DNA of 52,318 bases. Source: a virus. Its lineage: Duplodnaviria > Caudoviricetes. Within the stretch, counting starts at the first letter, position 1; every line of letters starts with the position of its first letter. The translations under genes and the position numbers were made by a program. Under the pieces are notes generated by a model. It did not search any database. It was not told the DNA's origin and saw only the letters and a program-made list of their open reading frames with translations. The stretch spans positions 1-52,318 of the IMG/VR virus record IMGVR_UViG_3300020042_002456, one strand, 5' to 3'. Below, in pieces: positions 23,275 to 42,553 of the stretch.

Positions 23275-25035
23275 TTATTGGGGCCGTGCCAGAACTCCGG
23301 TTGTAATAGGCTCTTTGGTTGTAACCACAGACGCGCCCTGCGGAGCCATTGCCGCCATAACCCCTCGAACTTGTTTTGCAAAATCTGTAGGAGAAAGGGC
23401 GTCAACACCAGTTTTACGTGCATCTGCAACGTGTTCAATATACATCTTGGCGTACACCTGACCAGTCTTGTCTGCGGTAATTTCTTGCATTTTTCTAAGA
23501 CCTGTTTCGTAATTGCCGCCGCCTAACAGGTTTGTAATTGCTCGAACTTCTGGCGGCATCGCATTTGCTTGATACAGCGCTCGGGCATTTGCTCCAGCTT
23601 GTTCTATGGCCGTACGATTGTTTGCCTGCGTTTGCTCGTAGACAGCTTTACGGTTAGACGCCATCGTGGTAAACCCAATTTCGGCTTCTTTGCGCCCAAG
23701 TTCTCCGTCTTTAATAAGCGCATTGAGGCCCAACTCTCTGGCTTTAACTTTGGTCTGCGCAATATCTTTAGTTGCTTGCCGTATTTCTTTATCGTTGAGC
23801 ATGCCTTCTGAGCGGCGCAATTCTTCGATTTTGGCAAAAGACTCGTCCAACTTGTCCCGCGCTTCGGCTAGTTTTTCCAAGCCAGCTTTGTAGGATTTGA
23901 CCCCAGACTGCGCACCCGCACCAATATTGGTCAACGCGTGTGGGGATGTGCCTGCCATCATTGCCAAGCCCGCCTCCATGATAGACATACCCGACAAATC
24001 AGACTCTTGTTTGGACAGGCGTTCTTCCCGTCCTTTTAGGCGTGTCTCATAGCCTGCCATTGCGGGGCCACGTTTCTCAATGTCCGCTAGTAATTGTTTT
24101 TTGTTTTGTTCAAGCATTGCCGCTTCGGCATCAGTCATTTCGCCAATCTCTTTACTGAAGCGGTTTACGGGTGTATATGCATCTCGAATTTTTGCGTACT
24201 CCGCAGCTATTTTGGTCGGGTCTGTTTCAGGAGCCCCAGCTTGGCTAATGCGCGTGTCAGTTTTCAAAAGGCTTTGCAAGCCTGAGTCTGCTTTTGCCGT
24301 ATCGGCTCCAGCCCTTGCCTTGCCTGTTGCAATCAATTCTTTTTCCGATGGGCCACCGCTCTTACCACGCCCTTGGTCTGCGCCTGTGGACGCCAGTGCT
24401 GCGGGTTTTACGGCGGGTGCGGGTTTTACTACGGGTGTTTGGGGGGTGTCCCGAGAAGCCCCTAAATATGCTTGACCCGCTTCAATAGCTTTGGCTTCAG
24501 TGCTTGCTATTTTTTCAGGTGTCGTTTGTTCAAACAAGCCGGGGCGATCCCGCTCAGCCTTCATCATGGCTTCGTTTTTTCGCTTTGACTCTTCAAACAA
24601 CTTCCTTCTAGCAATAGCTTCTGGGCTATCTTTAAAGAATTCTGAAAACCTAGACGTTGTACCGCCTTCATCAAAACCCACAATCCCGCCGTCAGCCATA
24701 CCCTGCATATTGGGTGCAGGTAGCTGCGCGATGCCTTGGTCTTCAGGTAGTTGCATCTGCGCTTGGGGCATGGCCTGCTGAGGCGGCATTGCCTGTGGCG
24801 GTGGTGCTGGGGGCGGGTTGATGGACGCAATTGCCTGATCGACCACTTTGGGGGCGGGCATCTGCCCAGCCTGTCCCTGCTGCGCGGCGCGAAGTTTTTG
24901 GCGGCGGTTGTTCTCGCTCATAGCCAAGGACATGATGTACGGATCGTCCTTGTTCATCATTGCATATTTCTGCAATGCTGCGTCCGGCATCAGCGCTAGG
25001 CTGTCCGTTACGTCTTGTATTTGACCGATGTCCAT
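23275..25035 (-). CDS. Putative internal virion/ejection protein
   Basis: Position before the giant protein; Q/P/A-rich; MADGG and FDEGG motifs; 'EAGLAMMAG…NIG.GA' segment. Confidence 0.65.
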   Translation of the reverse strand: MDIGQIQDVTDSLALMPDAALQKYAMMNKDDPYIMSLAMSENNRRQKLRAAQQGQAGQMPAPKVVDQAIASINPPPAPPPQAMPPQQAMPQAQMQLPEDQGIAQLPAPNMQGMADGGIVGFDEGGTTSRFSEFFKDSPEAIARRKLFEESKRKNEAMMKAERDRPGLFEQTTPEKIASTEAKAIEAGQAYLGASRDTPQTPVVKPAPAVKPAALASTGADQGRGKSGGPSEKELIATGKARAGADTAKADSGLQSLLKTDTRISQAGAPETDPTKIAAEYAKIRDAYTPVNRFSKEIGEMTDAEAAMLEQNKKQLLADIEKRGPAMAGYETRLKGREERLSKQESDLSGMSIMEAGLAMMAGTSPHALTNIGAGAQSGVKSYKAGLEKLAEARDKLDESFAKIEELRRSEGMLNDKEIRQATKDIAQTKVKARELGLNALIKDGELGRKEAEIGFTTMASNRKAVYEQTQANNRTAIEQAGANARALYQANAMPPEVRAITNLLGGGNYETGLRKMQEITADKTGQVYAKMYIEHVADARKTGVDALSPTDFAKQVRGVMAAMAPQGASVVTTKEPITTGVLARPQ

Positions 25036-25038
25036 GTT

Positions 25039-25986
25039 TTACCCCCGGCTCATTTGATACATTGCCAAGTCACTCAGGCCCGCGCCGGGTTGCTCATAGA
25101 TAGCTCCCCCCGCTGCGTATGTTTTTTTGCCCATTTGCGATGCCCCGTACAGCGCAGTGCCTGCGCCTGCCAACTGACTTAGTAGCGAGGGGGCGGGCTG
25201 CGTAACGGTGCTGCCAAGATTACCAACGGGTTGTCGGTTAACTACGTCAGACATAAACCCAAGCTGTTTGTACGGGTAGTTTTGCTCCGCAGCATAGTTT
25301 TGCTGGGAAACGTCCAACATGTTCTGGCCTTGCTGTTGTTGTTGTGTGCCAAACAGGTTTTGCATGTTTAAATTGCCTGTTGTCTGCCCATACAGATTCT
25401 GGCCTTGTGAACCCAGCGTTGCGTAGCTCTGCCCCATACGGTTTCGGTCAGCGTTGTACTGTTGTTGTGCTTGCTGAAAGGCTGCTTGGCTACCCATAGA
25501 CTGGATGTCACCCATCTGCTGCCCAAGATTGCGCTCCCGTTCAGCCCGCATGATGGCATCCCTACCCCCGCCAAATGCTCCGGCTTGCGCAGCTTGGGCT
25601 TGTTGCTGTGTGCCTTGAATACCGGATTGGCGCTGTGCTTCACGCTTTTGAATGTCCACCACGCTTTGCATGTAGGGCGACATGTACTGGTCAGCTTGCG
25701 CCTGATCAAAACGCGACCCCGCCAAGCTTTGCAACCCCTGTGCTGCTGCTACTGAGTACGGGTCTTGCCCAATATCTCCAACGCCTGTAAACGCCTTGTT
25801 CTGCAACCCTGTAAATTGGGCAACTTGGTCGCCTGTTAAACCCCGCGCCCTTGCGTAGTCTGCATAGCTTTGGTAATTTCTACCGGCAAGTTCCGCCGCA
25901 CGACCCATCGCGCTTTCGGAATAGTTTTGTATTACATCCGTCGGATACCCTTGGATATTTGTCGTTGTTAGCGTGTCATTAGCCAT
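25039..25986 (-). CDS. Putative internal virion/ejection (pilot-like) protein
   Basis: Q/A/G-rich; 'YMSPY…GAFGG.R'; hydrophobic C-terminal segment. Confidence 0.65.
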   Translation of the reverse strand: MANDTLTTTNIQGYPTDVIQNYSESAMGRAAELAGRNYQSYADYARARGLTGDQVAQFTGLQNKAFTGVGDIGQDPYSVAAAQGLQSLAGSRFDQAQADQYMSPYMQSVVDIQKREAQRQSGIQGTQQQAQAAQAGAFGGGRDAIMRAERERNLGQQMGDIQSMGSQAAFQQAQQQYNADRNRMGQSYATLGSQGQNLYGQTTGNLNMQNLFGTQQQQQGQNMLDVSQQNYAAEQNYPYKQLGFMSDVVNRQPVGNLGSTVTQPAPSLLSQLAGAGTALYGASQMGKKTYAAGGAIYEQPGAGLSDLAMYQMSRG

Positions 25987-25996
25987 GATCTATTCC

Positions 25997-28246
25997 TTAG
26001 ACGGGAAGATATTTATCTGCGCGGCTGTTTGCCGCTACTTTGTTTTTGCCCACGGTTTTGGAGCGGGCCTTCTGTACCCTGTCCATCATGGCGTAGAGCT
26101 TACGCGCACCAGCTTCTGTGGAGCCATTACCTAGTTCTGAAACAATCCGTGCGGGAACCACAAATTCACCGTCTGCGAGTCGGGCAGGTTGGTTGCGTCC
26201 AATAGTAGCGGGGATGTCATCAGATACCCCATCACCGGGGCCACGCAGCAGCCTGCCGCCATCAGAGTAGGAGCCGAGGTTATACATGCCGCCCTGCGCC
26301 AGTGCAGTGATGCCGCCGCCGTAGGCGTAACGGGAATCAAGTAAGCCACCATCGTTAGCGTGTTGTCCTTGGCTTCCAAACCCAGCACTAAAGGATCCAG
26401 TATTTGTACTAGCATTACTACTTCCGCCACCAGCATCGCCACCACCGCGCCCTCCACCGCTAGTTCCAGATATTTCATTAGCAAGAGCACGTTCTACTGC
26501 GGCTTGCTTTTCACCTTGCAGTGCGGCTCTGTCTGCGGCATCTTGTTGGGCTTGTGCAGCTACAGCATTTACTGCTGCATCTTGTTTTTTTTCTGTATAA
26601 CCGCTTTCTCGATCCATTTTTTCTTGTCGAGCAGCAAGTATTTTCCCAAACGCTAAGTTTTCGGCATCTCTTTTAGCATTTATTTCTGGAAGCGTTTGTC
26701 CTACTGGCGATGATGCTGCTGGTGGTGCTCGTCCATCTTGACCGGTTAACGTTTGGCCCTGCGCTCTAGCAGGATCAATACTCATTGGGTTGGCAGGTAT
26801 TCCTGCGCCGGTTTCAGATGTAACTCCATAACCCCCTTCAGATACAGGTGTTCCATAGCCCGCGCCTGCAAAAGTTTTAAAATTACTTGGGGGTGCGCCA
26901 AACATGGTTCCTTCGGCATACCCTTGTATTGCTCTTGCTTTAGCCGCCGCTGCATTAATTCCTGCTTGTCTTAATTCCCCGGTCAACATATCTTGCGATT
27001 TTAATTTTGCCAGAGATGAAAGCGGTAAAATTGGAATGTTTCCGTATGCGTCTAAAAATCTAAACCCAAGGCTTCCTTCCTCTGGAGAGGCTAATGGGCT
27101 TACGGGGACATATTTAGGCTCTGACCTCTCCTCACCACCACGAGTGCCGCCCGGCCCTGCAAACTCTGGTGTAAGCGCAGAAATACCTGCTGTGCTTAAA
27201 GCTGCTTTTGCATCTGCGGCTGCTTTTGCGTCTGCGGCTGCTTTTGCATCTGCTGCTATTTCTTCCATTGTGCGGGTTTTAGAATAGAACAAAAATGGAT
27301 TAACAGCTCCGGGTTTGCCAAGCAAATAGTCCTGCGCTCTTTGGGAGTCGCTGATTGTTGTTTGTGTGGCAGGAGTAATTGGTTTACCGCTTGCGTCAAC
27401 TGCTTCTATAACATCACCAAACTTAACTGGCTCTAACTTTTTCTTTTCCACTGTCCCACCCGCGTCATAGTGCTGCATAAGGCCGCCACCAGCATTACCA
27501 AAACGAACTGGCGGTGCATTTTTTACTTCGTCTCCAGAGTAGGTTTCATACGCATACGACTGTCCTGTTGCTGGGTCTTTCCTGTACATGTACAGATTCC
27601 CTGACTGTCGTTTAGGCGCAGGCGTTTCTTCTTCTGTTTTACCAAAAGAATCCATAAATACCGGTGCGGAAGCAAGCCCAATGTTTACTGCATTGTTTTT
27701 AAGCGCATCAAAAGGAGCGCTCATAGCGGTATTAGCGCCTGCCTGTAAACGAGCGGCTGTGGCAGCGGGGCTTGCTTGTGCTGCTGCGCTCATACCCGCA
27801 TCTCTTGCTCCTGATGCAGCATCCATAGCCACGCTGGGGGAACCTGCTCCAACCAAAGAAGCACCCAATCCTGCACCACCATAACCGCCCAGTCCAGCCA
27901 TCAAACCCTTTTCCAAACTGCCGGAAGCCAGTCCCGTAACGCCGCCAACAATAAGGCCTGTGCCAACCGCAGATGCCATACCGCCTGTAAGCCCTAAAGC
28001 TGAACCCACCGCGCCGCCAATACCGGGGGCAAATGCGTTCAAAGCAAAGCCCGCAATGGCGGGTAGCAGATTTTCCAAAATACCCGCTTCAGGTAGTCCG
28101 GTCTGGGGGTTAATAGTAAGAGAGCCACCATGCCGCATAGCAAGTGCTTGTAGTCCCTGCACCTCACGGGGAGACATATGGACAAGGGTTGAGTCGGGGC
28201 CGCGTCCATGCGCGGACATGTGATTGGCAAGGGTGTGAAGGCTCAT
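25997..28246 (-). CDS. Putative internal virion/ejection protein with Gly-zipper TM region and C-terminal 'GPGDG.SD.IPA…L.DGEFV' domain
   Basis: Motifs read from translation. Confidence 0.7.
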   Translation of the reverse strand: MSLHTLANHMSAHGRGPDSTLVHMSPREVQGLQALAMRHGGSLTINPQTGLPEAGILENLLPAIAGFALNAFAPGIGGAVGSALGLTGGMASAVGTGLIVGGVTGLASGSLEKGLMAGLGGYGGAGLGASLVGAGSPSVAMDAASGARDAGMSAAAQASPAATAARLQAGANTAMSAPFDALKNNAVNIGLASAPVFMDSFGKTEEETPAPKRQSGNLYMYRKDPATGQSYAYETYSGDEVKNAPPVRFGNAGGGLMQHYDAGGTVEKKKLEPVKFGDVIEAVDASGKPITPATQTTISDSQRAQDYLLGKPGAVNPFLFYSKTRTMEEIAADAKAAADAKAAADAKAALSTAGISALTPEFAGPGGTRGGEERSEPKYVPVSPLASPEEGSLGFRFLDAYGNIPILPLSSLAKLKSQDMLTGELRQAGINAAAAKARAIQGYAEGTMFGAPPSNFKTFAGAGYGTPVSEGGYGVTSETGAGIPANPMSIDPARAQGQTLTGQDGRAPPAASSPVGQTLPEINAKRDAENLAFGKILAARQEKMDRESGYTEKKQDAAVNAVAAQAQQDAADRAALQGEKQAAVERALANEISGTSGGGRGGGDAGGGSSNASTNTGSFSAGFGSQGQHANDGGLLDSRYAYGGGITALAQGGMYNLGSYSDGGRLLRGPGDGVSDDIPATIGRNQPARLADGEFVVPARIVSELGNGSTEAGARKLYAMMDRVQKARSKTVGKNKVAANSRADKYLPV
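27201..27254. repeat. 18-bp tandem repeat x3 (encodes ADAKAA x3)
   Basis: GCTGCTTTTGC(A/G)TCTGC(G/T) x3. Confidence 0.9.
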
Positions 28247-28545
28247 GTTTTTACTTTCAAAACGTTACTAGCCGTGGTGTCATAGTATATATCGCCCACC
28301 CGCAAATTGGCTAAATCTGCTTGAGTTGGAAGGCTTGGTGTTGTTGACGTTCCTGTTGGGAAAAAGCTAAGTCCAGCAATGATATCTGTACCGTTTGTTT
28401 GTGTACTAGCCGTCATTGGGCCAGCGTTATCTAGCTGGTTAAAGTACAACCTTAGTACGTTTGTTAGCTGATTTATAAGCGCAGGGTCATACACATTACC
28501 TATTGCAGCAGGCATTCTGGGGGCGACTACATTTTTTTGTGCCAT
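28243..28545 (-). CDS. Structural protein (nozzle-associated, hypothetical)
   Basis: Directly follows the nozzle gene; ATGA coupling. Confidence 0.65.
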   Translation of the reverse strand: MAQKNVVAPRMPAAIGNVYDPALINQLTNVLRLYFNQLDNAGPMTASTQTNGTDIIAGLSFFPTGTSTTPSLPTQADLANLRVGDIYYDTTASNVLKVKT

Positions 28546-28547
28546 AT

Positions 28548-30890
28548 CTATCTTCTGCCGTCAGGACGCAAATCTATTCTAGGAGCGCCAAGCTGCCACT
28601 GCGTACCAAGGGTGTTGGAGGTGATCTTCATCTGCATCTGCCGCCCACGGACACGGATGTAAAGCTGACCCGTGAACTCATCTACGTTAATTACAGAAGG
28701 TGCAGGCCCGCCGTTCACCACATTGGCGTTGCCCGTCTGAGTAATGCCAGAGCCTGAGTTGTTTAAACCCTGTAGGTACATGGTGACTTGCGGGGTTGTT
28801 CCCGAAGTTGATCCACGAAACGTCAGGTCAGGGATCATGCGGTACACAAAGGCAAAGTTATGACCGTCCCCAATGTCGTACTGGGAAGAGGTAATGGACG
28901 CTTCAATAGCTACAGGTGTTCCAGATACGTTGTCATCTACACCATCTTCATGATTAACAATGTTATAGCTGTAAGTAGCCGCAAGTGGAAAGTTTCTTAA
29001 CCCGGTATCCAGCCAAGCTGTACGAGCCATTGAGCCGTACTGCCAGATGTCTTCTGTGTAGTTATAAACAGCGTACCTATCAATAGTTTGGCTGGAGGAT
29101 GAGCAATAGAACCACCAGACTTCGTTAAAACCCTCATTGGTACTGCCAAATATCTGGTCATACTGCGAGGCGTTAATATCGCTGTAGATGTATCGGAGTA
29201 AATCGCAGCGCAGGGTCTGCACCCGCCCATCATATTTATAGAACTTTTCTACACCCATCCAATAGGTAACGCCAGAAGCTATAGCCGCTGCGTTGGGGCC
29301 AGCAATAGATATATTGTCGGCAAGGAGTTGCGTACCCCACACATAAGGTGGGCCAAGGTACTGTAGCGAATACAGTGCTGAGTCTGTCCACACCAAAATC
29401 TCTTGGCGGCTTTGCAGGGTAGTAATAATTTCAGAGCCGTGCGAAAGACGAACACTGCCAGCTTGGTTGGTTACTGCTGGATACCATGTGGTCAAAGACT
29501 CCTGATCTGACCAGCGGATAAGCATTGGGTCAAGTACCACACTGCCGTAGTCATTTGTACCAAACACAAGCAGAAACCGGCTGGCATCTGATATGGTAAA
29601 TGTGTTTTGATATAAAGGCGTGTACCCATCTGCCCCTGATAGAGAAGACAACAACATACCGCGCACAGAAATGGCGTGTGTTCCTGACTGTGTTCCAGAA
29701 GTAATAACTGCTGTTGATAGGGTATAGGTAAGACCTGTGGGCGTTCCTGCGGTGGTTGTGACTCCAGAACCACCTACAGTAGTAGATAAAGTAAATGTTG
29801 TAGAACCATTGGTGGCAACAATGTAATACGTTGTAGGGTTGGTATATCCCGTAATAGAGCCTGTGCCTCCGTAAGTTCCACTGATTACTAACGCCTGATT
29901 AATCACCAAAGTAACGCTTGCGGCGGTGCAACTAAATTGCCCTGCTATGCCCGTAATAACTACACCCGATAACGTTGCACTTGAAGTAGCAGATGTTGCT
30001 AAATTAAAAGTAGAACTGCTGAAATTGGTAACGTAGTACGTTACCCCCGGTATTAAGCCAGTTGGTAAAGCTCCAGTTGTGGTTAAGGTAAGGGGAGTAC
30101 CATTTGCTAACGTAACCCCAAGTACAGTAGCTACGCAAGGGGACGCTATGGTTAACGTAACACTGGGTTCGCGGTATCCAATAGCTGCGTCCCAGTAATA
30201 CAACGGCGATCCACGGGGGCCATAAACTAAATCTTCCCCCCAGTTAAGCTGGTTCCAGATACGCATGGTATCTGTAGAGGAAGTGCCAATACCCCATGTA
30301 CCCGAACCCCAAGTGCCTGCACCCCAGCCGTTCAGAGGTATGGAGTATGAAGGGCCGGTATTGATTTGATAGACGGCGAAAACTGTGCCGCCGCCAGTAG
30401 CCGCAGTAGCTGCTGCGGAGATTGTGATGGTGTATGAGTTGGAAATAACATTGGTAATCTGGTATTCACCGGTAATAAGCTGCCCACCCACGGCAGTGCC
30501 GCCGTAAAAGATTACATAGTCGCCACTGATAAACCCGCCCGTTGCATCCGCGACAGTGACTGTGGTTGTGCCGTTTGTGGTGAACGGGTTGGTCAGAGTG
30601 TGTTCTGCGCTAATTGGGGTAATGTCGTAGTACGCCCCACCGTTCTCAATGTAGAACTTTAAGTTTGTACCAATCCCAAGCAGATTCTGTGATCCCAGCG
30701 TTATCCAGTTCCACAAGGAACGACATACCCCAAAGAATGTATTAGCTGAAATACGCGACCAGCCGCCTATCTTCTCTGGCGTGCCTTGGCGAAACCGCAC
30801 CTTGTCGGACTCATACCAGCCACCTTCATTGGTGTAGCGCGTATTTTCTCTATTCACGCCGCTTTTTAGTTGAAGTTTTTGTAGTGGCAT
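28548..30890 (-). CDS. Podovirus tail nozzle / tubular protein B-like (beta-propeller) with Thr-rich insertions
   Basis: 'G.NRE.T.Y..EG.W…KVRFR.G.PEKIGGW' N-terminus; 'IRWSDQE' motif; size and position. Confidence 0.7.
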   Translation of the reverse strand: MPLQKLQLKSGVNRENTRYTNEGGWYESDKVRFRQGTPEKIGGWSRISANTFFGVCRSLWNWITLGSQNLLGIGTNLKFYIENGGAYYDITPISAEHTLTNPFTTNGTTTVTVADATGGFISGDYVIFYGGTAVGGQLITGEYQITNVISNSYTITISAAATAATGGGTVFAVYQINTGPSYSIPLNGWGAGTWGSGTWGIGTSSTDTMRIWNQLNWGEDLVYGPRGSPLYYWDAAIGYREPSVTLTIASPCVATVLGVTLANGTPLTLTTTGALPTGLIPGVTYYVTNFSSSTFNLATSATSSATLSGVVITGIAGQFSCTAASVTLVINQALVISGTYGGTGSITGYTNPTTYYIVATNGSTTFTLSTTVGGSGVTTTAGTPTGLTYTLSTAVITSGTQSGTHAISVRGMLLSSLSGADGYTPLYQNTFTISDASRFLLVFGTNDYGSVVLDPMLIRWSDQESLTTWYPAVTNQAGSVRLSHGSEIITTLQSRQEILVWTDSALYSLQYLGPPYVWGTQLLADNISIAGPNAAAIASGVTYWMGVEKFYKYDGRVQTLRCDLLRYIYSDINASQYDQIFGSTNEGFNEVWWFYCSSSSQTIDRYAVYNYTEDIWQYGSMARTAWLDTGLRNFPLAATYSYNIVNHEDGVDDNVSGTPVAIEASITSSQYDIGDGHNFAFVYRMIPDLTFRGSTSGTTPQVTMYLQGLNNSGSGITQTGNANVVNGGPAPSVINVDEFTGQLYIRVRGRQMQMKITSNTLGTQWQLGAPRIDLRPDGRR

Positions 30891-30893
30891 ACG

Positions 30894-31337
30894 TTAATCC
30901 AGTAATCGACATTCCGCAGTTCTGCGTTTAACCAGCCCCGGCAAGACTCGTCCACCACCTTTTGTCCAGAGCAAAAGCTGCTCCTTCGCCTCTTCCCAAC
31001 TACCTGCGTTTATCTTGCGCTTGAGGGTGCTGGTTTGCAAACGCCCAGTGCCTAAATTGTAGGCGAAATCCACGATTGCATTACATTTTTTCTCATCGGT
31101 CAGTAAGACCGGGCAGTGCCGCAAAACGCCGGGAAGGTAGGTGTGGTGGAGTTCTTGTAACAACAGCGTAGATGCATCGGGTTCAGACATGGGCGGGTCT
31201 GTCAACGCCACCTTGCGTCCATCGGCGTAGTAAGTACTGCCGTAACCAATCGTTGGGACACCGGCAGGACAGAGGTAGGGTTTACCCCTAAACCCCTCAA
31301 ACTGTTTACACAGTGCTGCGGCAATGTCTAGCTTCAT
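30894..31337 (-). CDS. Endolysin, GH24 phage lysozyme
   Basis: FEGF…YLCPAGVPTIGYG (E-x8-C-x5-T triad), FAYNLG, LPGLVKRR..E. Confidence 0.93.
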   Translation of the reverse strand: MKLDIAAALCKQFEGFRGKPYLCPAGVPTIGYGSTYYADGRKVALTDPPMSEPDASTLLLQELHHTYLPGVLRHCPVLLTDEKKCNAIVDFAYNLGTGRLQTSTLKRKINAGSWEEAKEQLLLWTKGGGRVLPGLVKRRTAECRLLD

Positions 31338-34617: not shown

Positions 34618-34619
34618 GA

Positions 34620-35258: not shown

Positions 35259-35267
35259 AGATGATCC

Positions 35268-35864: not shown

Positions 35865-35877
35865 GTTGTAACCTTTA

Positions 35878-36336
35878 CTAAACGACTGTCCAGACCGAAC
35901 CAGTAGGTACTGTTACAGTTATTCCACTAGCCACCGATATTGGGCCTGCACTAAAGGCATTTCTACCCGTACTAATAGTTGAACTTACATCAATTGAGGC
36001 ATCATTTTCTACATACCCTTCACCGCCAGTAATAGCTCGTCCTGACGGATAAGTAACAAAAACATCCTTTGTACCAGAAGAAAATGTAACAAGCGACCCG
36101 CCGTTGCTGGAGGATAAGACTGTATCACGGGATAAAGTTGTGCCAGAGGATGTATACGTCCCAATGCCAACTTCCCACTCAGAGCCAGACTGGCCTGCAA
36201 TTGTGTAATACGTTGTATTGGCATTACCCACCGCAGAAAACGACTGAAACCCCGTTGAGGCTCCAAGAAGCGTGACAGTACCCGTACCCGTTGTAGCGGT
36301 AGTTTCTTTAACCCGATCTGCTAGTACAAGAGCCAT
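35878..36336 (-). CDS. Fibre/adaptor structural protein
   Basis: 'LADRVKETT..TGTG…WEVG.G'; same C-terminal module as 35268..35864. Confidence 0.75.
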   Translation of the reverse strand: MALVLADRVKETTATTGTGTVTLLGASTGFQSFSAVGNANTTYYTIAGQSGSEWEVGIGTYTSSGTTLSRDTVLSSSNGGSLVTFSSGTKDVFVTYPSGRAITGGEGYVENDASIDVSSTISTGRNAFSAGPISVASGITVTVPTGSVWTVV

Positions 36337-36344
36337 TTATGCCT

Positions 36345-36776
36345 CTATGGTGGAGTGTCAATCAACACCCAACTTGTGGTCTGATTGTTTGGGATTGTAG
36401 ACCAACTGGGGGATTGCACATTAGCTATATTTTGCCAGTTTGCTGTTTGATTGTTGTCTATTATGACCCAACTTACCGGAATAATTATCCCCACAGCACC
36501 CACTGCCTGCACCCCAGACAGCGCCAACGATATATCTATACCTACACTGCCAACTCCGCCTGTTGCTTCAAGCCCGGTAAGGGCAATAGAAACTGCTTGG
36601 GATGTAGTAATTGTTCCAACTAATCCAACCGCCTGAACTCCAGTCAGCGCAAGGGATATATCTACACTTACAGTACCCGCATTCCCCGTTGCCTGAACTC
36701 CCGTTAACGCCAATGTGACGTTAGTTCCCCCCAACGCTGAGAACGGCGCTCCAGAGAAAGGGGTTATACCAAACAT
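36345..36776 (-). CDS. Structural protein with four ~20-aa repeats ((L/I)AL(T/S)GxxAxGxxG)
   Basis: Repeats visible in translation. Confidence 0.7.
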   Translation of the reverse strand: MFGITPFSGAPFSALGGTNVTLALTGVQATGNAGTVSVDISLALTGVQAVGLVGTITTSQAVSIALTGLEATGGVGSVGIDISLALSGVQAVGAVGIIIPVSWVIIDNNQTANWQNIANVQSPSWSTIPNNQTTSWVLIDTPP

Positions 36777-36801
36777 GGCCTACGGCCTTCGCCGCCTCCG
36801 C

Positions 36802-37293
36802 TTAGGTTGTTGCCAAACGCAACAAAGCAGTCGTAGTGGTACTGGAAGGCATGGTTAACGTCAGCGTACCAGAAGTGATGGTCTGCGCGGTAAAGGTGTA
36901 AACACTGATAGCCTTATCACTCTGCGTTGAGTTGTAGAGCAACACACAGTCAAACGAGGTAGTTAGTGTTACGCTTGTGTACACAATGCTTGCCGAAGGA
37001 GTCCAATATCCTACGCCCGCCGTTGCAGATGCATTGGTAAAGGTTGGGGCTGTGGCATTAGTTACTGTTACCCCACCTGCGCTATAGTTTGCACCAGACA
37101 CTTCACCAGTAGCTGAATAAATGGTTGTAGAAGCATTGATCGTAGCGGAGGCCAAGTACAAAGCAGCCTTTAGAGTATCCGTAGTAGGAGCGGTCAAGCT
37201 ACCGCGAGAAACGATAGTAGAAACGCCAAGTTGGTGTTGGCCCAGCATCAGTTCGCTGAGGAACGATGTAGCCATTGATTGCGTGTTTGCCAT
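36802..37293 (-). CDS. Structural protein, paralogue of 37491..37913
   Basis: TSF..EL…H, TDT.K.ALY, EVSG..Y.AGG, DK.I.V motifs shared. Confidence 0.75.
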   Translation of the reverse strand: MANTQSMATSFLSELMLGQHQLGVSTIVSRGSLTAPTTDTLKAALYLASATINASTTIYSATGEVSGANYSAGGVTVTNATAPTFTNASATAGVGYWTPSASIVYTSVTLTTSFDCVLLYNSTQSDKAISVYTFTAQTITSGTLTLTMPSSTTTTALLRLATT

Positions 37294-37302
37294 TTTAGTT
37301 CC

Positions 37303-37494
37303 TTAAAAAGAAGCAGTAACGCCAACAGCAAAATTAGGTATTTTCTTCAACGTCACATGTGCCGAGCGGTGAACCAACTCACCATCCAACCAGTACTCTA
37401 CCCATGTTGTTAGCTCATTGTCATTCTCAATTTCCCCGGCGCGGTGTTCCAGCAAGGAATCATCCATGTCGCCTTTGGTAGTAGTAACGATCAA
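37303..37494 (-). CDS. Hypothetical structural-region protein
   Basis: TTG start with SD AGGAG; coupled to upstream stop. Confidence 0.65.
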   Translation of the reverse strand: MIVTTTKGDMDDSLLEHRAGEIENDNELTTWVEYWLDGELVHRSAHVTLKKIPNFAVGVTASF

Positions 37495-37913
37495 TTTGAA
37501 CTCCTGATAAGTGCCGTAGTTGAGGTGTTAGCGGGCATGGTAATTGTAAACGTGGTGGTCGATGTTTTGTCAGACCCAAAGTCCAGTACCGCAATTGACT
37601 TATCACCCTGCGTGACGTTGTAAATCAAAGCACACCGGGCAGTCAAAGCCGCTGTCCAAGACACGTTATCCCAGTTTACATAAGCTACATAGCCAGATGA
37701 ACTAATCTGAACCCCAGTCATAGTCTCCCCGCCAGCCGTGTAGCCTGTACCTGAGACTTCATAAGGATTGGTATTGCTGTAAACGGTAGTATCTGCGTTT
37801 AAATCCGCATTGGCGGTGTACAGAGCAATCTTGATTGTGTCTGTAGCCAAGTTGTGGACAGCCGTGTACAGCTCCTTCTTGAAGCTGGTAGTCTGGGTCT
37901 GAACAATGCTCAT
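37491..37913 (-). CDS. Structural protein, paralogue of 36802..37293
   Basis: Shared motifs as above; ATGA coupling. Confidence 0.75.
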   Translation of the reverse strand: MSIVQTQTTSFKKELYTAVHNLATDTIKIALYTANADLNADTTVYSNTNPYEVSGTGYTAGGETMTGVQISSSGYVAYVNWDNVSWTAALTARCALIYNVTQGDKSIAVLDFGSDKTSTTTFTITMPANTSTTALIRSSN

Positions 37914-38611
37914 GTAACCGCCTGCCTATATTGACCACTACGATAGGCATCCTGACGCTCCATCCCATCACCCAGACGTTTAGCCAGCATAAGTGCTTCC
38001 TTGTACTTGCCGTCATACAGGGCTATCAAATCTGCCTCACCCTTCATAAAGGTGTAGGCTTCTACCAACGAACCGTAAAGTAAAACCGTGTCAAAGTTAT
38101 CCCCTAACCACGTTTGACCGCTAGAAGCCACAGTGATTGACTCAGGATAGTAGTAGTAATGAAGTTCTGCGGAATAAGTGGCATCCGGGGTTGGGCCAAG
38201 GATAAAACTTAGCTCATTAGTGACTACGGAACTAGCAATCGTAGGCCCAAACAAAGCGTAGTACTTTGGTGTTCCCGTATCCGTTGGTGTGGGATATGCC
38301 TCACGCATGAAGTTCACATCTTTGTTAAGCAGAAATGTGTACGGGCCAGAGCCGGAGAAAACAGCCAACGAGTAAGGGGCTAAGAAGTCATCTGGGCAGG
38401 ACAGGTATTTGTTGCTGGCAGTAATGGTTCCCGTCACGTTCTTACGCAACGAGGGGAACTGCACCGTGTTATAGATGCGCTGCTCCGCCTGCTGGATGAA
38501 GCGGTTGATCTGAGTCGTAGACGATACAGTAGACGAGTTCGCAAGGGTAATCGTCGGAAAGGTATTTTCCGTATAAGTCTGTATCGCCGCCGAAAGCTCA
38601 GTGTATGTCAT
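37910..38611 (-). CDS. Head-tail adaptor / tail tubular protein A-like
   Basis: 'TYTEL..AI…FI.QAE.RI…G.PKYY…GPTPD…LLYG.L.EA' pattern. Confidence 0.75.
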   Translation of the reverse strand: MTYTELSAAIQTYTENTFPTITLANSSTVSSTTQINRFIQQAEQRIYNTVQFPSLRKNVTGTITASNKYLSCPDDFLAPYSLAVFSGSGPYTFLLNKDVNFMREAYPTPTDTGTPKYYALFGPTIASSVVTNELSFILGPTPDATYSAELHYYYYPESITVASSGQTWLGDNFDTVLLYGSLVEAYTFMKGEADLIALYDGKYKEALMLAKRLGDGMERQDAYRSGQYRQAVT

Positions 38612-38868
38612 GCCATCGGGCCTCTTGCCATCACGCCCTTGGTAGCTGCACCAGTTCCTCGGACTTTAATTCCGTCGGTCTTGGTAGTCTTGTCGGGGCC
38701 GTTGTTATACATGCCAACACTCATGCGCATGTCGCTGGTGCTAGATAGTTCAGAATCCTTGCCGGGGTTTGAAGAAATCTTCAAAGCCTTGCCGTTCATC
38801 TTATGCGGCGGTGCATAAACAGCAGCAGAGCCAATTTCTTTGCCGCCTTTTTTCATACTGTAAGCCAT
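38608..38868 (-). CDS. Small basic protein (MKKGG; RGTGAATKG)
   Basis: ATGA coupling; motif cluster member. Confidence 0.75.
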   Translation of the reverse strand: MAYSMKKGGKEIGSAAVYAPPHKMNGKALKISSNPGKDSELSSTSDMRMSVGMYNNGPDKTTKTDGIKVRGTGAATKGVMARGPMA

Positions 38869-38871
38869 GAT

Positions 38872-39042
38872 TTACCCCGTTTTTTGGTTAGCTGCACGAG
38901 ACAGGTTACGCCCTACGCGCATGCGGTCTTCACTGGTAGGGCCACCCTTTTTCATGCCTTTGGCATGCATGCGGCTTTCGTGACCCTTGACCATTTTCTT
39001 GGCCTCGGTATCCGCAATTTGCTTTACTTTTTTCGTGTCCAT
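38872..39042 (-). CDS. 56-aa basic protein with MKKGG (absent from ORF track)
   Basis: MDTKKVKQIADTEAKKMVKGHESRMHAKGMKKGGPTSEDRMRVGRNLSRAANQKTG*; SD GGAG 6 nt upstream. Confidence 0.75.
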   Translation of the reverse strand: MDTKKVKQIADTEAKKMVKGHESRMHAKGMKKGGPTSEDRMRVGRNLSRAANQKTG

Positions 39043-39051
39043 CATTGACTC

Positions 39052-39441
39052 CTATGAAACCGTTACCGTTACTGTACCAACACTTGTAACTCCAACCAAA
39101 TAATTGGGAGTTAACGCTACATCAAACTGACTTGCTCCACCAACCGGATACCAGCCCCACTGGATGTCCCTTGAGCCTCCCGTGAGGTTACCCGAACTGT
39201 TAACCCCTGCCGTTATATATGTGCTGTCGTGACGAGGATTACGCACCGCTTGCGGATCATCCACTGGGTACATACCAAGCTGCAACTGCGGTTGATCTGG
39301 ATCCCAGCAAGACCGGCATACAAGCAAATTGTACGTCTTTGTCTTAATAATTTCTTTACGTAATTCGGTTAATTTAAAACTAGCGCCACACCTATCGCAC
39401 ATGGCAATACTGTTCTTGCCTGATGCAAACCTATTACCCAT
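39052..39441 (-). CDS. Zn-ribbon protein (CDRC…CRSC)
   Basis: Two CxxC motifs. Confidence 0.75.
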   Translation of the reverse strand: MGNRFASGKNSIAMCDRCGASFKLTELRKEIIKTKTYNLLVCRSCWDPDQPQLQLGMYPVDDPQAVRNPRHDSTYITAGVNSSGNLTGGSRDIQWGWYPVGGASQFDVALTPNYLVGVTSVGTVTVTVS

Positions 39442-39442
39442 T

Positions 39443-40372
39443 TCAAGCTCCGCCCCCTATATAGGCCTGACGCGGCACAAACCGCACGGATGCCTTCTCG
39501 CGGTCTTCGTCTGACGCTAACTGCCAAGCCTCATCATATTGAGCTTTTAATATATCTAACCGTTGCGCACCATTGGGGACTTTAAGCGCCAAGTAGTAGG
39601 CCAGCCCCGCCACCATGCACGGCAAGAACCGAAACGGTACGTCCATAGTGTTCACGCCACCACCAGCATCATTAACACGGCGCAACCGCCAATAAATAAA
39701 CTGGTACGTCTGGGAGTTATCGGGGGTAGGCCACACCGTGATAGCGGGCAGGCTTTGTACGTACGCACCGTCTCCCGCAGTGTGTGCCGCAGCAGTCGTG
39801 TTGTTCTGGCCCCGGACGCAGTTACTTAGGGTATTCCCTGATATGTAGCCATACCCAATGGTTTCCGAACCAATCAAGATAAAACCGGTAGAGGGTAAGC
39901 TTGCGGCAGAAGTCACCGCAATTGTCGTAGCGGTGGATGTAATTGTTGCACTAATTGTGGTTCCCACCGCCGAAGTCTGCCCGTCTAAACGTTGAATCCA
40001 AACCTGAATAGGGCGTGCTTGTTGCAGCTTGTTGGGGATGGTGGCGTAGGTAGAAACACTAATGCGCGTTATGGTCAGGTCAGCTTGGGTGGACGCACTG
40101 CCTGCGCCTGTACGTATTACGTGTTCAAGCAAGTCCACTGTGTCAGTTGGTAGTGGGTAGGTGTTCTGACCCGGAACTAAATTAATAGTCCCTTGATCGA
40201 ACGTCCACATGTTGACGCCACGGTTGGCCCAGTCTGCAAAGAGTAGGTTCAATGACCGGCGGGCGGTGCGCAAATCATAACCCGTACGCATTTCGGAACC
40301 AGCACGTTCAAACGCTTCCTCCACGATCTCCGTGAGGTCAAGGTTGAAAGTAGCAATTCCCGAAGTAGACAT
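39443..40372 (-). CDS. Head-tail adaptor-like protein with Thr/Ala-rich insertion
   Basis: 'EEAFER.G…ARRSLNL…W.NRG…WPTPD…P.RF.P…GLAYY' pattern. Confidence 0.7.
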   Translation of the reverse strand: MSTSGIATFNLDLTEIVEEAFERAGSEMRTGYDLRTARRSLNLLFADWANRGVNMWTFDQGTINLVPGQNTYPLPTDTVDLLEHVIRTGAGSASTQADLTITRISVSTYATIPNKLQQARPIQVWIQRLDGQTSAVGTTISATITSTATTIAVTSAASLPSTGFILIGSETIGYGYISGNTLSNCVRGQNNTTAAAHTAGDGAYVQSLPAITVWPTPDNSQTYQFIYWRLRRVNDAGGGVNTMDVPFRFLPCMVAGLAYYLALKVPNGAQRLDILKAQYDEAWQLASDEDREKASVRFVPRQAYIGGGA

Positions 40373-40605
40373 TATCTAAAACCTGCTGTTTTCTTTGCTA
40401 TGGTTTTGGGTTGCGCCACAAACTGTTTGCCCGCTGCCTTACCTGCACGTTTTGCTCTAGTGGTAGCTGCGTACTCAGTTGATGACAAAGATTTTATAGC
40501 AGCTTCAGGTAAGTACCGCTCACCTGTTTTTGACGACGGCTTTCCCGATTTGGTGCGCCATTTCTGGTCACCCCAAGCTTTAAGGGATTGCTGCGGTGCT
40601 TTCAA
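40372..40605 (-). CDS. Small basic protein (DUF5872-like C-terminal half)
   Basis: 'Q.SL..W..QKW.TK.G…ERYLP'. Confidence 0.65.
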   Translation of the reverse strand: MKAPQQSLKAWGDQKWRTKSGKPSSKTGERYLPEAAIKSLSSTEYAATTRAKRAGKAAGKQFVAQPKTIAKKTAGFR

Positions 40606-40889
40606 TCTCTGTACCCTCCGCCTGCGGCCTTATAGCGTTTAGCCATAACTTGTGCTTTTCTGGCTGACCACTGACCAGCGCCCGTACCTACGATTGCCGC
40701 AGCTTTAACGCTGTTGAAAATACGCTTGCGTAGCTCAGGCTTGGTGTAGTTGCCAGCTTCATTTACCTTGGACTTTACTTTACCGCCTTCAGCGTATTGC
40801 GTGAAGTCAGTGTCATCCCTACGGGCTTTTTTCTTGCCCTTTGGCATTTTGGACGGGTCAATATTGCCCATACCGCGTGAAGCTCTCAT
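40602..40889 (-). CDS. Small basic protein (DUF5872-like N-terminal half, preceded by YAEGG)
   Basis: 'NYTKPELRKRI…GQWSARKAQ..AKRYK..GGGY'. Confidence 0.7.
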   Translation of the reverse strand: MRASRGMGNIDPSKMPKGKKKARRDDTDFTQYAEGGKVKSKVNEAGNYTKPELRKRIFNSVKAAAIVGTGAGQWSARKAQVMAKRYKAAGGGYRD

Positions 40890-40892
40890 GGT

Positions 40893-41279
40893 TCAGCACA
40901 TCTTTCCACGGGTCTTACCCCGCTGGGCGATACCATCTGCGCGAGAAGAAGCTGAACCACCCGAAGCCATTTTTTTAACTGCGCCGCCATGTTTCATATC
41001 ATTGCCCGCTTCGTCTTTCATGTACGGCCTTGTGCGTTTTGCCATGCGGTCAATAGTTGCCTGATCCGCAGCCGTATTAGCGGCTACTTTAGCCTCTGCA
41101 TCTTGTCTATCTACAGTAGCTTTACCACTACTGGTGTATAAATCTCGCGGTTTATTTACACCAAACTTAGTATCCGCATCTGGCTTACGCGTCAATCCCC
41201 GCTCTTTATTTAAAAAATCACGCAAACTTAAACCGGAATCTTCCAGTTCTTTTTTGGAAACAATGCGTTTTGTAGTCAT
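40893..41279 (-). CDS. Small basic protein with C-terminal RADGIAQRGKTRG tag
   Basis: SD AGGAG; MKHGG and MASGG motifs. Confidence 0.75.
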   Translation of the reverse strand: MTTKRIVSKKELEDSGLSLRDFLNKERGLTRKPDADTKFGVNKPRDLYTSSGKATVDRQDAEAKVAANTAADQATIDRMAKRTRPYMKDEAGNDMKHGGAVKKMASGGSASSRADGIAQRGKTRGKMC

Positions 41280-41289
41280 AACTTACTCC

Positions 41290-41868
41290 TTAGCAGGCTT
41301 TGCCGCCATTTTTCATACTAACCATCGTACCTTTGGTCTTGCCTTTGGTGGCAATACCGTCTGCACGTTTGGAAGCTGAACCCACAGCGCCGCCAGACTT
41401 CATGCCAAAACTTTTGCCAAGTGCCGCACCCGCACCAGCCATTTTGTTCATGCCCATTGCTGTGCCAATACCCGTTTTTGGTCCAGACATTGCTGCGCCA
41501 AGACCTTGCAATGGCCCGCCTCCGGGCATTGGCTTTGCGTTTGTGCCTGATTTGGGCGTTCCAGAATTTGTTGAATTCATAGCAGATTTAGCGGCTGCGG
41601 CGTATGTTTTTGCAGCATCAGACATGCCGCCTGCTGGCCTTGGGCCAACACTACCCATCATCGCGGTGCCAAGCCCTGTTTTAGGTCCAGACATTGCTGC
41701 GCCAAGACCCATTGGTGACCCAGATGCCCCACCGCGCAACTGGTCGGACATAAATTGCAACTGCTTTTGGATACCGCCTTGCCTTGGGCCGCCACTCATT
41801 GGCTTAGGACCACCCGGACGCGGTTTATTATCAATAGCAGGGGGGGCCCCGCGTACAAAACTAGTCAT
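41290..41868 (-). CDS. Low-complexity G/M/P/K protein with C-terminal RADGIATKGKTKG tag
   Basis: SD AGGAG; MKSGG and MKNGG motifs; internal duplication. Confidence 0.75.
   Translation of the reverse strand: MTSFVRGAPPAIDNKPRPGGPKPMSGGPRQGGIQKQLQFMSDQLRGGASGSPMGLGAAMSGPKTGLGTAMMGSVGPRPAGGMSDAAKTYAAAAKSAMNSTNSGTPKSGTNAKPMPGGGPLQGLGAAMSGPKTGIGTAMGMNKMAGAGAALGKSFGMKSGGAVGSASKRADGIATKGKTKGTMVSMKNGGKAC
41480..41709. repeat. 26-bp perfect direct repeat (41480-41505 and 41684-41709), encoding GLGAAMSGP
   Basis: GGTCCAGACATTGCTGCGCCAAGACC occurs twice. Confidence 0.9.
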
Positions 41869-41879
41869 AACTATCTCCT

Positions 41880-42164
41880 TTAGACGAAACGGCCTTTTGT
41901 GCGGCCACGTTGAGCGATACCGTCGCCCCGGCTTGCTTTGACAGCCCCACCCTTTTTCATCTGGACGGGGGTTGCTGTTGCGGGATTCATCTGTGCGGCG
42001 TCTGCTTCGCCTGTGTTGACTTGAACCAAAGGCGAAGTGTTTCCTAAACCACCAGCATCCTGTGCGGGGGCTTGCATTTGACTTTGGCCTTGACCAAACG
42101 GGTAGTTGGAATTTCCAACCATGCCGCCATCGTCAAAGCGTTTCATGCGTTTTTTAGTTGCCAT
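41880..42164 (-). CDS. Small protein with C-terminal RGDGIAQRGRTKG tag (start moved to MATKK)
   Basis: TAATG coupling; FDDGG and MKKGG motifs. Confidence 0.75.
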   Translation of the reverse strand: MATKKRMKRFDDGGMVGNSNYPFGQGQSQMQAPAQDAGGLGNTSPLVQVNTGEADAAQMNPATATPVQMKKGGAVKASRGDGIAQRGRTKGRFV

Positions 42165-42553
42165 TAGCACTGCCCACCTTTCTTCATTACAACTTGTTTA
42201 GCCTTGGTCAAGCCTTTTTTGGCTACACCATCAGGCTTGGAGTTGGTTTTAACAGAGCCCATCTTGGTCATACCACCGGCTTTGAGGCCAGCGTGAGCTT
42301 TGGAAGCAGGTTTAGCTGCGTGTTTTGCTAGTGCGCTGCCTTTGTCGCCGTCTTTTTTCTTAGCAATCATTGCCATAAAGCCGGGGTTCATTTTAGAAGC
42401 CATAGTATCACCACCTTTAGAGAATTTACGGCCCTTGTCCGCAGTTGAAAAATCTTGCCCCACGGACTGTGGAACGCCTGCCTTCTTGGCAAACGATGGA
42501 TTATGAGCCACCGCTTCCATGAACTTGTGTTGCTTTTTACTTGTCGTCGGCAT
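42164..42553 (-). CDS. Lys-rich protein with KPDGVAKKGLTK tag
   Basis: FSKGG, LKAGG and MKKGG motifs. Confidence 0.75.
   Translation of the reverse strand: MPTTSKKQHKFMEAVAHNPSFAKKAGVPQSVGQDFSTADKGRKFSKGGDTMASKMNPGFMAMIAKKKDGDKGSALAKHAAKPASKAHAGLKAGGMTKMGSVKTNSKPDGVAKKGLTKAKQVVMKKGGQC

Follow-up and report, generated by a model that had tools for sequence, protein, structure and literature searches.

Portable signals for virion incorporation or processing are known from several systems, and here we set the closest of them beside a short peptide motif that recurs in the late proteins of a tailed phage, IMG/VR virus record IMGVR_UViG_3300020042_002456. The whole stretch of DNA analysed, which we call the window, is linear, 52,318 nucleotides (52.3 kb) long and 82% complete according to CheckV. 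The motif consists of a Met, Phe or Tyr three positions before a Gly-Gly pair (GG). It occurs in three ejection-type proteins and in small basic proteins, several of which end in a conserved module that carries it. Sequence comparison indicates that it is a genuine short linear motif of disordered ejection-type and small basic proteins in this phage lineage. The motif, the module family and the sharing of the motif by both kinds of protein appear to be new.

Encapsulin cargo-loading peptides are short C-terminal segments of glycine and hydrophobic residues, carried by diverse cargo, that attach to the inner surface of an HK97-fold shell. The proteins studied here resemble such cargo in combining a variable body with a conserved C-terminal tag, although the sequences are unrelated and a tailed phage is not a nanocompartment. 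Double-glycine leaders, the substrates of bacteriocin C39 peptidases, carry a hydrophobic residue two positions before GG. They are resembled by the family of gene 40602, whose conserved N-terminal part of ~36 residues ends in GG and is followed by alternative C-terminal parts; however, [LIV]xGG is not enriched here, no C39 domain or transporter was found, and the "leader" of 40602 also occurs alone with a short basic tail. In phage T4, the gp21 prohead protease cuts off the capsid targeting sequence (CTS) at an L/I-x-E site. The CTS is a conserved tag that directs highly diverse small basic internal proteins into the prohead (PMC3012670). A short conserved tag on otherwise diverse small proteins is matched here by the C-terminal module. 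The CTS is N-terminal, whereas the main tag here is C-terminal and unrelated in sequence; moreover, no S77 or S78 protease was found in the window or in a complete relative, and the packaging of the proteins studied here is putative. The adenovirus protease (AVP, or adenain) cuts Met-Arg-Gly-Gly, thereby freeing the basic, Cys-bearing peptide pVIc, and has IVGL↓G as its other consensus (PMC4246237). Basic DNA-associated small proteins, a bulky residue followed by Gly-Gly, and a basic C-terminal peptide with a Cys are common to both systems, but one residue separates the bulky position from GG in AVP substrates and two do so here, the Cys is here the very last residue, and no C5/CE-clan protease was found. 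Finally, in work on the polyvalent proteins of phages, embedded metallopeptidases have been proposed to process packaged multi-domain proteins (Iyer et al. 2017, PMC5512222). A giant LPD38 protein adjoins the ejection genes of the window, but the motif is nearly absent from such giant proteins and the word "glycine" occurs 0 times in the main text of PMC5512222. A literature search of limited reach, weak as evidence of absence, turned up no account of the motif, of the module or of DUF6321, a domain of a neighbouring small protein, and nothing on small basic glycine-rich internal virion proteins of podoviruses.

Enrichment of the motif

The late genes of the window lie on the minus strand, from 51805 down to 13383, and are named here by their lower coordinate. 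A sequence-only reading of the window had listed copies of [MFYL]xxGG in ten late proteins. All 20 listed copies were found in the genes to which they had been assigned, together with three extra matches, LLGGG (gene 23275), LIVGG (25997) and MPGGG (41290). Compared with pooled, composition-preserving shuffles across the ten proteins, these 23 matches stood against a mean of 6.37 (standard deviation 2.45), and 0 of 20,000 shuffles reached 23; for [MFY]xxGG, 19 were observed against 4.07 expected, and again 0 of 20,000 shuffles were as high. The ten proteins contain 8-22% Gly, and the objection that they are simply rich in glycine is removed by counting conditionally on GG dipeptides. Counted in this way, M/F/Y/L occupied position -3 at 21 of 44 GG sites in the ten proteins (6.7 expected, p = 3e-7) and at 14 of 90 sites elsewhere in the window (12/72 in 33 other late proteins and 2/18 in 19 early ones). 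The claim that the motif is common to both protein classes held when each was counted separately, with 7 of 24 GG sites in the three ejection-type proteins (2.2 expected, p = 0.004) and 11 of 20 in the seven small proteins (2.1 expected, p = 1e-6).

The ten proteins and the residue class had been picked post hoc. When 181 position-residue pairs around GG were scanned without bias, Met at -3 ranked first (10/44) and Val two residues past GG ranked second (8/44). The originally proposed residue class survived in part: in the loci of relatives, Met, Tyr and Phe were 3.3-4.7x enriched at -3, whereas Leu, at 1.2x, was not enriched. As read from these sequences, the refined motif is [MFY]-x-x-G-G-x-[V/T/I], with the extended consensus [K/G]-[MYF]-[K/A]-x-G-G-x-[V/T/I]-[K/S]; the second residue past GG is hydrophobic at 58% of motif sites, compared with 38% at 880 other GG sites. 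In 25 loci spanning the capsid-to-adaptor interval, M/F/Y/L stood at -3 at 215 of 502 GG sites of 304 small-region open reading frames (ORFs; 75 expected) and at 115 of 420 GG sites of 377 other ORFs (74 expected), counts that are not independent because the loci are related. Likewise, five of the listed copies (MKHGG, MASGG, MKSGG, the MKKGG of 41880, and LKAGG) lie in one paralogous C-terminal module and are not independent of one another. Independent replication was provided by 150 representative proteins that had been retrieved through the C-terminal module alone: outside their last 45 residues, M/F/Y occupied -3 at 61 of 159 GG sites, against 14.1 expected.

Conservation in related genomes

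The window belongs to a very abundant, uncultured freshwater lineage of Pam1/HTVC023P-like podophages. Its cultured relatives include Phage DSL-LC04, Planktothrix phage Pag-Yong1, Pelagibacter phages HTVC027P and HTVC023P, Roseobacter phages CRP-901 and CRP-902, and Caulobacter phage RW; we also used five related records (G001-G005), of which CheckV rates four as 99-100% complete, with G001 at 100% and bearing terminal repeats. Orthologues were counted in alignments from 80 related loci and from 120 listed homologues of 25997. In most copies of the motif the bulky residue and GG are retained and the x residues vary, so that the motif also stood up to comparison across genomes. In gene 42164, FSKGG was kept in 28/31 orthologues, the C-terminal MKKGG in 27/28 and LKAGG in 21/28. 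Corresponding values were 23/24 for YAEGG (40602), 19/24 for the MKKGG of 38872, 10/17 for MKSGG (41290), and 33/37 and 15/38 for MASGG and MKHGG (both 40893). Among homologues of 25997, YSDGG was kept in 120/120, LAQGG in 119/120, YAYGG in 107/119, YDAGG in 68/104 and MRHGG in 63/103. Neither the MKKGG of 38608 (4/26), which is probably a chance copy, nor the MPGGG of 41290 (2/15) was conserved. Gly codons and x-position codons differ between copies, which argues for selection on the peptide rather than on the DNA; a DNA-level junction signal, such as one for recombination between modules, was ruled out by this codon variation.

The motif also recurs in distant relatives, whose adaptors are ~30-35% identical. 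HTVC027P carries FKKGG, YKVGG, YKKGG, YSEGG and a terminal FKNGGKK in the small basic proteins between its portal and GroES-like genes, and YADGG, FNEGG and FRKGG in its ejection-region proteins. The motif is likewise present in DSL-LC04, in Pag-Yong1 and in the ejection-type proteins of G001-G005, and in Caulobacter phage RW MARGG heads a conserved ejection-protein domain, while YMDGGRV forms the last seven residues. A double motif with copies 8-9 residues apart was found as MADGGIVGFDEGG in 23275, as FNEGGIAHFDEGG in G002 and as MKKGGxVKKMAxGG in the C-terminal module. The x residues track local charge, being Lys in the small proteins and Asp, Glu or Ala in the ejection proteins. The proposal that copies sit at boundaries between low-complexity and conserved segments was borne out by the module, which is conserved from xKGG onwards, by the 25997 domain, conserved from RYAxGGG, and by the YAEGG junction.

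Small basic proteins and their C-terminal module

The small proteins carry net charges of +7 to +20. Three of them, 40893, 41290 and 41880, share a C-terminal module that is degenerate in 42164 and has the consensus [MFY]KKGGxVKK[MY]AxGG(x)SAS[SK]RADG[IC]Ax[RK]GKT[RK]G[KR][MIF][C/V]-end. Gene 40893..41279 (minus strand, as are all genes of this section) encodes a basic protein of 128 aa, in which a variable N-terminal part precedes the module (40896-41018) with MKHGG (40983-40997) and MASGG (40956-40970); it ends in ...GKTRGKMC, and its sole Cys is the last residue. The product of 41290..41868 (192 aa, basic and rich in Gly, Met and Pro) contains the module at 41320-41439, with MKSGG at 41389-41403, and past it an extra MKNGG (41302-41316) and a terminal Cys; its module was matched with an expectation value (E) of 1.3e-15 by a model built with this protein left out. 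In the basic 96-aa protein of 41880..42170, an N-terminal KRFDDGGMVG motif (42123-42137) accompanies a module at 41883-42005 with MKKGG (41946-41960), and the protein ends in GRFV. Gene 42164..42553 (129 aa, basic) begins with a conserved 44-residue N-terminal domain ending in FSKGG (42410-42424), followed by the degenerate module (42203-42319, with LKAGG at 42272-42286) and a C-terminal MKKGGQC (42173-42187). This domain, residues 1-44, matches phrog_16759 as well as the N-terminal ends of two PHROGs annotated as virion structural proteins (phrog_22033 and phrog_25121), and in orthologues it ends in F[SK]xGG.

Further copies of the motif lie in three small proteins outside this module family. 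Gene 40602..40889 (95 aa, basic) has a conserved N-terminal part, MxxSRGMG...YAEGG, with the motif at 40782-40796; within its family this part joins one of three alternative C-terminal parts, or a short basic tail only, and the C-terminal part of the window protein matches phrog_17747. A central MKKGG (38941-38955) is found in the 57-aa basic ORF 38872..39045, and an N-terminal one (38842-38856) in the basic 86-aa protein of 38608..38868. Gene 42733..42990 encodes an 85-aa DUF6321 protein (PF19846, E 6.5e-23) that lacks the motif and ends in ..RWKC. A second tag, M-x-(A)-S/G-R-G-M-G, was observed at the extreme N-terminus of 40602, of two DSL-LC04 proteins (L001 1315-1542 and 2468-2752) and of most 40602 orthologues. 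The small proteins as a whole resemble strings of tiny reusable modules that are combined differently across relatives, the units including the 44-residue N-terminal domain, DUF6321, and segments of the QWSARKAQ type (phrog_17747) and of the GRPYPN-, NIHAKR- and MSEFKSGKLKS types.

Among the 80 related loci, 38 contained the module, in a total of 74 ORFs encoding proteins of 58-453 aa with hypervariable, low-complexity N-terminal parts. The onset of conservation coincides with the motif, since the consensus is undefined over the 19 positions before xKGG and defined after it, and in 49 of the 74 ORFs the end lies exactly 3 residues past GKT+G. A profile search of 1.84 billion representatives with the module returned 8,959 clusters at E <= 0.001 and 2,544 at E <= 1e-10. 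In nearly all of the best 150 of the 8,959 representatives the module lies at the extreme C-terminus; these 150 carry the motifs 23 and 32 residues from the end, 65 cases showing a spacing of 9, and 57 of them finish in Cys and 56 in Val. A few representatives contain 2-5 tandem copies of the module. Within the window, 40893, 41290, 42164 and 42733 end in Cys, which is the only Cys of the protein in the first three, and 49 of 304 small-region ORFs of relatives end in the same way. From these sequences it seems that a free C-terminal thiol or carboxylate matters, for example in a disulfide, in metal binding or in a pocket.

A tblastn search with the 45-aa module gave no match in cultured phages, for which low-complexity filtering is a possible cause. 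A degenerate DNA pattern of the module retrieved only 19 contigs, all of them from metagenome-assembled genomes (MAGs) or uncultured sources. The 8 long contigs that matched the pattern all carried the same head module, and co-occurrence therefore singles out no receptor.

Ejection-type proteins

Three consecutive minus-strand genes (28246-23275) encode the ejection-type proteins. Gene 23275..25035 (586 aa) carries MADGG (24685-24699) and FDEGG (24661-24675), 8 residues apart, directly after a low-complexity stretch rich in Pro, Gln and Met, and the relative G002 has FNEGG..FDEGG; the LLGGG of this protein (23515-23529) is probably incidental. The product of 25039..25986 (315 aa) matches the DNA ejection protein family phrog_4287 (E 1e-6) and bears YAAGG (25105-25119) 22 residues short of its C-terminus.

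The 749-aa protein of 25997..28246 is made up of four parts, namely a conserved N-terminal part with MRHGG, a glycine-rich hydrophobic stretch, a long variable region with YDAGG (27455-27469) and a conserved C-terminal domain. Its N-terminal ~57 residues (28076..28246) are a conserved unit in most full-length homologues, with the consensus GRGPDxxLVHMxPxEVxxLQxLAxxxGGSLTINPxTGLPEAGF, and run into the glycine-rich hydrophobic stretch; this region is probably the membrane-active end of an ejection protein. The C-terminal domain (26000..26338, ~105 residues) is headed by YAYGG (26315-26329), LAQGG (26288-26302) and YSDGG (26255-26269) in the pattern YAxGG..LAQGG..YSDGGRLLxGPGDGxSDxIPA...GEFVVPA...helix, and its conservation starts at RYAxGGG. 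An ESM Atlas model of the whole protein had a mean predicted local distance difference test (pLDDT) value of 0.47. In a search with the C-terminal domain, 8000 of 8000 candidates scored at E <= 0.001, none of them named. In the relative G004 a domain of this type is internal and is followed by YAGGG/FQAGG and then by a homologue of 25039. HINT-type domains (PF07591 pretoxin-HINT or PF05203 Hom_end-associated Hint) were observed in 5 of the 120 listed homologues of 25997 (P0071, P0078, P0083, P0101 and P0097), where they may be inteins or self-processing inserts, and DUF4214 was observed in four.

A parallel to 25997 is cargo protein 1 (gp45) of phage crAss001, a long ejection-type protein that has a membrane segment at its N-terminus and is for the most part unresolved. 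Short segments of gp45 are docked to the tail barrel (214-245) and to the portal wing (425-552) (PMC10172136). Just past these docked segments gp45 carries FAEGG (260) and FAYGG (559), but with the motif at 3 of 20 GG sites (1.85 expected) enrichment in gp45 is not significant, and the placement is therefore an anecdote; in crAss001 gp47, 4 of 9 GG sites bear the motif (0.9 expected), so that the signal in crAss001 is weak overall. The nearest named ESM feature cluster to the C-terminal domain of 25997 was crAss_CARG1, with a score of 0.82, which lies below the level for anything more than a lead. Comparison with crAss_CARG1 (PF25725) gave no Pfam match at E <= 1, and the model was too poor for fold comparison. 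By analogy with crAss001, the portal protein (47743..50118, minus strand; phrog_1216) may be considered a candidate docking site for this domain. Complex prediction with the portal (791 aa, 39-row alignment) and the domain (134 aa, 55 rows), run without controls, gave no verdict (score 0.00 in both runs) and speaks neither for nor against such docking.

Candidate processing enzymes

The statement that no classical prohead protease is recognisable in the window agreed with our Pfam scans, which found no C5, C48, C39, S77, S78 or ClpP match among 62 proteins. None of these families was found by Pfam, which does not reach novel folds, among the 83 ORFs of the 100%-complete relative G001 either. 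Peptidase-type matches were confined to an early gene of the M20-like type, the S74 chaperone of a fibre and a lysin of the M15 family (M15_4).

The sequence-only reading had drawn an analogy with adenovirus core proteins, which our counts did not uphold. The adenovirus register [MIL]xGG occurred 7 times against 5.67 expected, a number reached by 1684 of 5000 shuffles, and the second register, [MIL]xGxG, occurred 10 times against 5.69 expected (281 of 5000 shuffles). The register of double-glycine leaders, [LIV]xGG, was not enriched either (5 against 5.18 expected). Relative to both the adenain and the double-glycine-leader registers, the bulky residue that is enriched here is shifted away from GG by one position.

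None of the proteins put forward as readers of the motif found support. The C-terminal domain of 25997 is not confidently folded when modelled alone (AlphaFold2 pLDDT 51) and has no invariant Cys or His. The product of 45745 does fold (pLDDT 77), into a small alpha/beta unit with a long helix, but its conserved residues include no His and it matched no solved fold, with 0 matches at E <= 0.001 among 321 rows from PDB; its 12 matches in BFVD are all uncharacterised. The product of 39052 resembles a four-cysteine zinc ribbon. A zincin domain was sought in the giant protein of the window, which has HEVGVH (HExxxH, not HExxH) and lacks the motif; HExxH is present in three of the four giant proteins found in relatives and missing from that of G001. 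Pfam at E <= 10 matched nothing in the HExxxH region, and among PHROGs this region matched only phrog_18222, a family of unknown function. No meaningful match came from PDB sequence searches with 25039, the 25997 C-terminal domain, 45745, 47155, the module profile, 44885 or the capsid protein.

Genomic context

In order of the minus strand and as assigned by Pfam and PHROG, the late genes begin with the terminase, the portal, a 66-aa gene, a GroES-like gene and an acidic scaffold-like gene, followed by the unassigned genes 45745 and 44885, an HK97-type major capsid protein and a cement-like protein. Next comes the small basic protein cluster (42990-40372), and after it a pair of SU10/Pam1-type adaptors that enclose a zinc-ribbon protein and two further small proteins. 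The fibre and lysis genes, a nozzle-like protein and the three ejection-type proteins follow, and a giant polyvalent-type protein closes the series. An open-ended ORF that runs off the end of the window (51869..52318, plus strand) showed a weak SU10_portal match (E 0.001, under the family cut-off), which is probably spurious, the real portal being 47743..50118.

The major capsid protein (43961..44872, minus strand) is HK97-like and has no delta domain. Its identity among five relatives is 88-91%, compared with 27-87% for the other proteins examined, including portal, scaffold, adaptors and terminase, and it is 84-95% identical across all relatives compared; on these alignments it is under unusually strong purifying selection. 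By inference, it may be regarded as a candidate receptor of the motif, and high conservation would suit a hub for many tags. More than 601 viral contig stretches contain a relative of this capsid protein, the best 80 of them at 87-95% identity. A set of contigs (L111-L129) that share the head module, and whose capsid proteins are 84-89% identical, had been binned as Chitinophagales, Microbacteriaceae, Methylopumilus, Nanopelagicales, Cyanobium, Bacteroidota and others. These conflicting MAG labels probably reflect mis-binning, so that the host of the lineage cannot be read from them.

The scaffold-like protein (46190..47146, minus strand; phrog_28737) is probably helical, and its C-terminal end is conserved in DSL-LC04 and Pag-Yong1; both this comparison and its acidity were judged by eye. 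In many phages the interval between portal and scaffold is the site of the prohead protease. Pfam scans revealed no prohead protease gene beside 46190. Between portal and scaffold the window instead carries the GroES-like gene (47155..47580, minus strand; Cpn10 E 0.0025; phrog_3188, co-chaperonin), which is kept in all relatives examined. We considered whether the motif mimics the GroES mobile loop, which in relatives reads KTxGGI(V/I)L, and rejected this idea because the loop lacks the bulky -3 residue and the window copy has SGLIK.

The giant protein (13383..23218, minus strand) is divided into parts of 2711 aa and 545 aa, both of which match phrog_18222, with LPD38 in the 545-aa part (E 7e-30). 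In G001 it is unsplit (2461 aa, LPD38 at residues 2169-2347). It is probably virion cargo, and a homologue from phi24B has been found in virions (preprint 10.64898/2026.04.10.717836). The motif was present at 0 of 16 of its GG sites in the window and at 0/15, 0/9, 2/6 and 0/9 in four relatives.

Discussion

The explanation that we tentatively prefer, although we give it somewhat less than an even chance, is that the motif is an uncleaved docking or loading recognition element that heads portable end-modules. Recognition would involve a hydrophobic anchor, a glycine hinge and a beta-branched residue. The motif stands at the head of the ~40-residue C-terminal module of the small proteins and of the ~105-residue C-terminal domain of 25997, and it is likewise found in N-terminal tags of the KRFDxGG type and where modules join. 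Such modules would serve as address labels that bring hypervariable, low-complexity proteins to a common site during procapsid assembly, which we infer to be the capsid inner face, the scaffold or the portal, and the labelled proteins would be packaged and would later exit with the DNA. The small proteins and the ejection-type proteins would in that case be virion cargo, and the motif would be bound rather than cut. A hypervariable body joined to a short, position-fixed, conserved end-module is built like a portable address tag, for which the T4 CTS and encapsulin cargo peptides are precedents, and crAss001 gp45 illustrates how short docked segments can hold ejection-type cargo on portal and tail. 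Copies that lie within 2-4 residues of the C-terminus (MKKGGQC, MKNGGKAC, YMDGGRV of RW and FKNGGKK of HTVC027P) are implausible as maturation cuts, and docking is further favoured by the failure to find a protease, by the scaffold-like gene and by a capsid protein without a delta domain. The sequence-only reading had proposed head cargo that is processed or docked at GG: a role as cargo is plausible given the position in the head module, the basic charge and the predicted disorder, but no positive evidence of cleavage emerged.

Several observations weigh against docking. The giant protein, which is probably cargo, lacks the motif, so that the motif is no universal loading label. We identified no receptor for the motif or the module, and our literature search found no virion proteomics of relatives, the CRP-901 paper being without virion mass spectrometry. 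The tag-plus-cargo picture may be wrong, since the variable N-terminal parts are mostly of low complexity and offer few obvious payloads. The placement of copies at junctions suits a cleavage site equally well, and the tandem module arrays split by the motif (P0121, P0122, P0123 and P0254) look like polyprotein precursors.

Maturation cleavage at or after GG by an unrecognised phage or host protease is the reading to which these last points lead, and we regard it as unlikely. A host protease trims the leader of P22 gp7. Cleavage would free basic peptides of ~20-30 residues and separate the modules of ejection proteins, as in adenovirus core proteins. Processing proteases of viruses and bacteria commonly have Gly-Gly at P2-P1, the motif stands at module junctions and divides the tandem arrays, the small proteins are strongly basic, the lone terminal Cys of the module is loosely pVIc-like, and a few 25997 homologues contain self-processing domains of the HINT type. 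However, none of the protease families sought was found in the window or in the complete relative, and the proposed readers lack a protease fold or a catalytic Cys/His. The bulky residue is one position too far from GG, and neither the adenain nor the double-glycine register is enriched. Cuts at the copies nearest the C-terminus would free trivial fragments, and the giant multi-domain cargo protein, which by the account of Iyer et al. would need processing most, is without the motif. We find it possible, though still rather improbable, that the motif is a generic biophysical element with no dedicated reader, a hydrophobic sticker with a glycine hinge that serves self-association, coats or condenses DNA or an acidic scaffold, or simply forms turns, its conservation reflecting bulk property and paralogous spread. 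This would fit a glycine-rich, disordered context (pLDDT 0.47 for 25997 and 51 for its C-terminal domain), small proteins charged +7 to +20 net next to a scaffold-like protein judged acidic by eye, the multiplicity and tandem repetition of the motif, the origin of five of the 20 listed copies in one paralogous module, and x positions that follow local charge. It would fit less well with the positional precision of the module, whose motifs lie at 23 and 32 residues from the end with a spacing of 9 in 65 cases and whose end lies 3 residues past GKT+G in 49/74, or with the presence of the same core in acidic and basic contexts. The preference for M/F/Y over L and for V/T/I two past GG also speaks against it, and these preferences point to a defined binding geometry.

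That the motif is a chance or compositional artefact of glycine-rich proteins, or a signal at the DNA level, is highly improbable and already largely refuted. Proteins with 8-22% Gly, a short pattern with two free positions, and a post hoc choice of both protein set and residue class would invite such an artefact, but 0 of 20,000 shuffles reach the count, the enrichment persists conditionally on GG, it was replicated in independent non-homologous sequence and in distant relatives, and the codons differ. A joint reading, which we also hold to be improbable, combines elements of docking and cleavage. It posits an undescribed "glycine-hinge" address system, in which the motif and the module with its free Cys or Val end would load a large and rapidly evolving set of disordered basic proteins, together with the ejection proteins, by docking to the highly conserved capsid protein or to the scaffold, some sites perhaps being cut by a protease of unknown fold. 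Within this same doubtful reading, such a system would by analogy do in a phage what cargo-loading peptides do in encapsulins.

Only in a few model phages is it known how short-tailed phages choose the proteins that they package and co-inject. The motif is a candidate sequence-defined signal that spans ejection proteins and an uncharacterised, very large family of small basic proteins (8,959 clusters) in a phage group that ranks among the most abundant in freshwater. A cleavage code would imply a new virion protease or a dependency on a host protease. A loading tag would account for the recruitment of hypervariable internal proteins and, like the T4 CTS, could be used to package foreign proteins.

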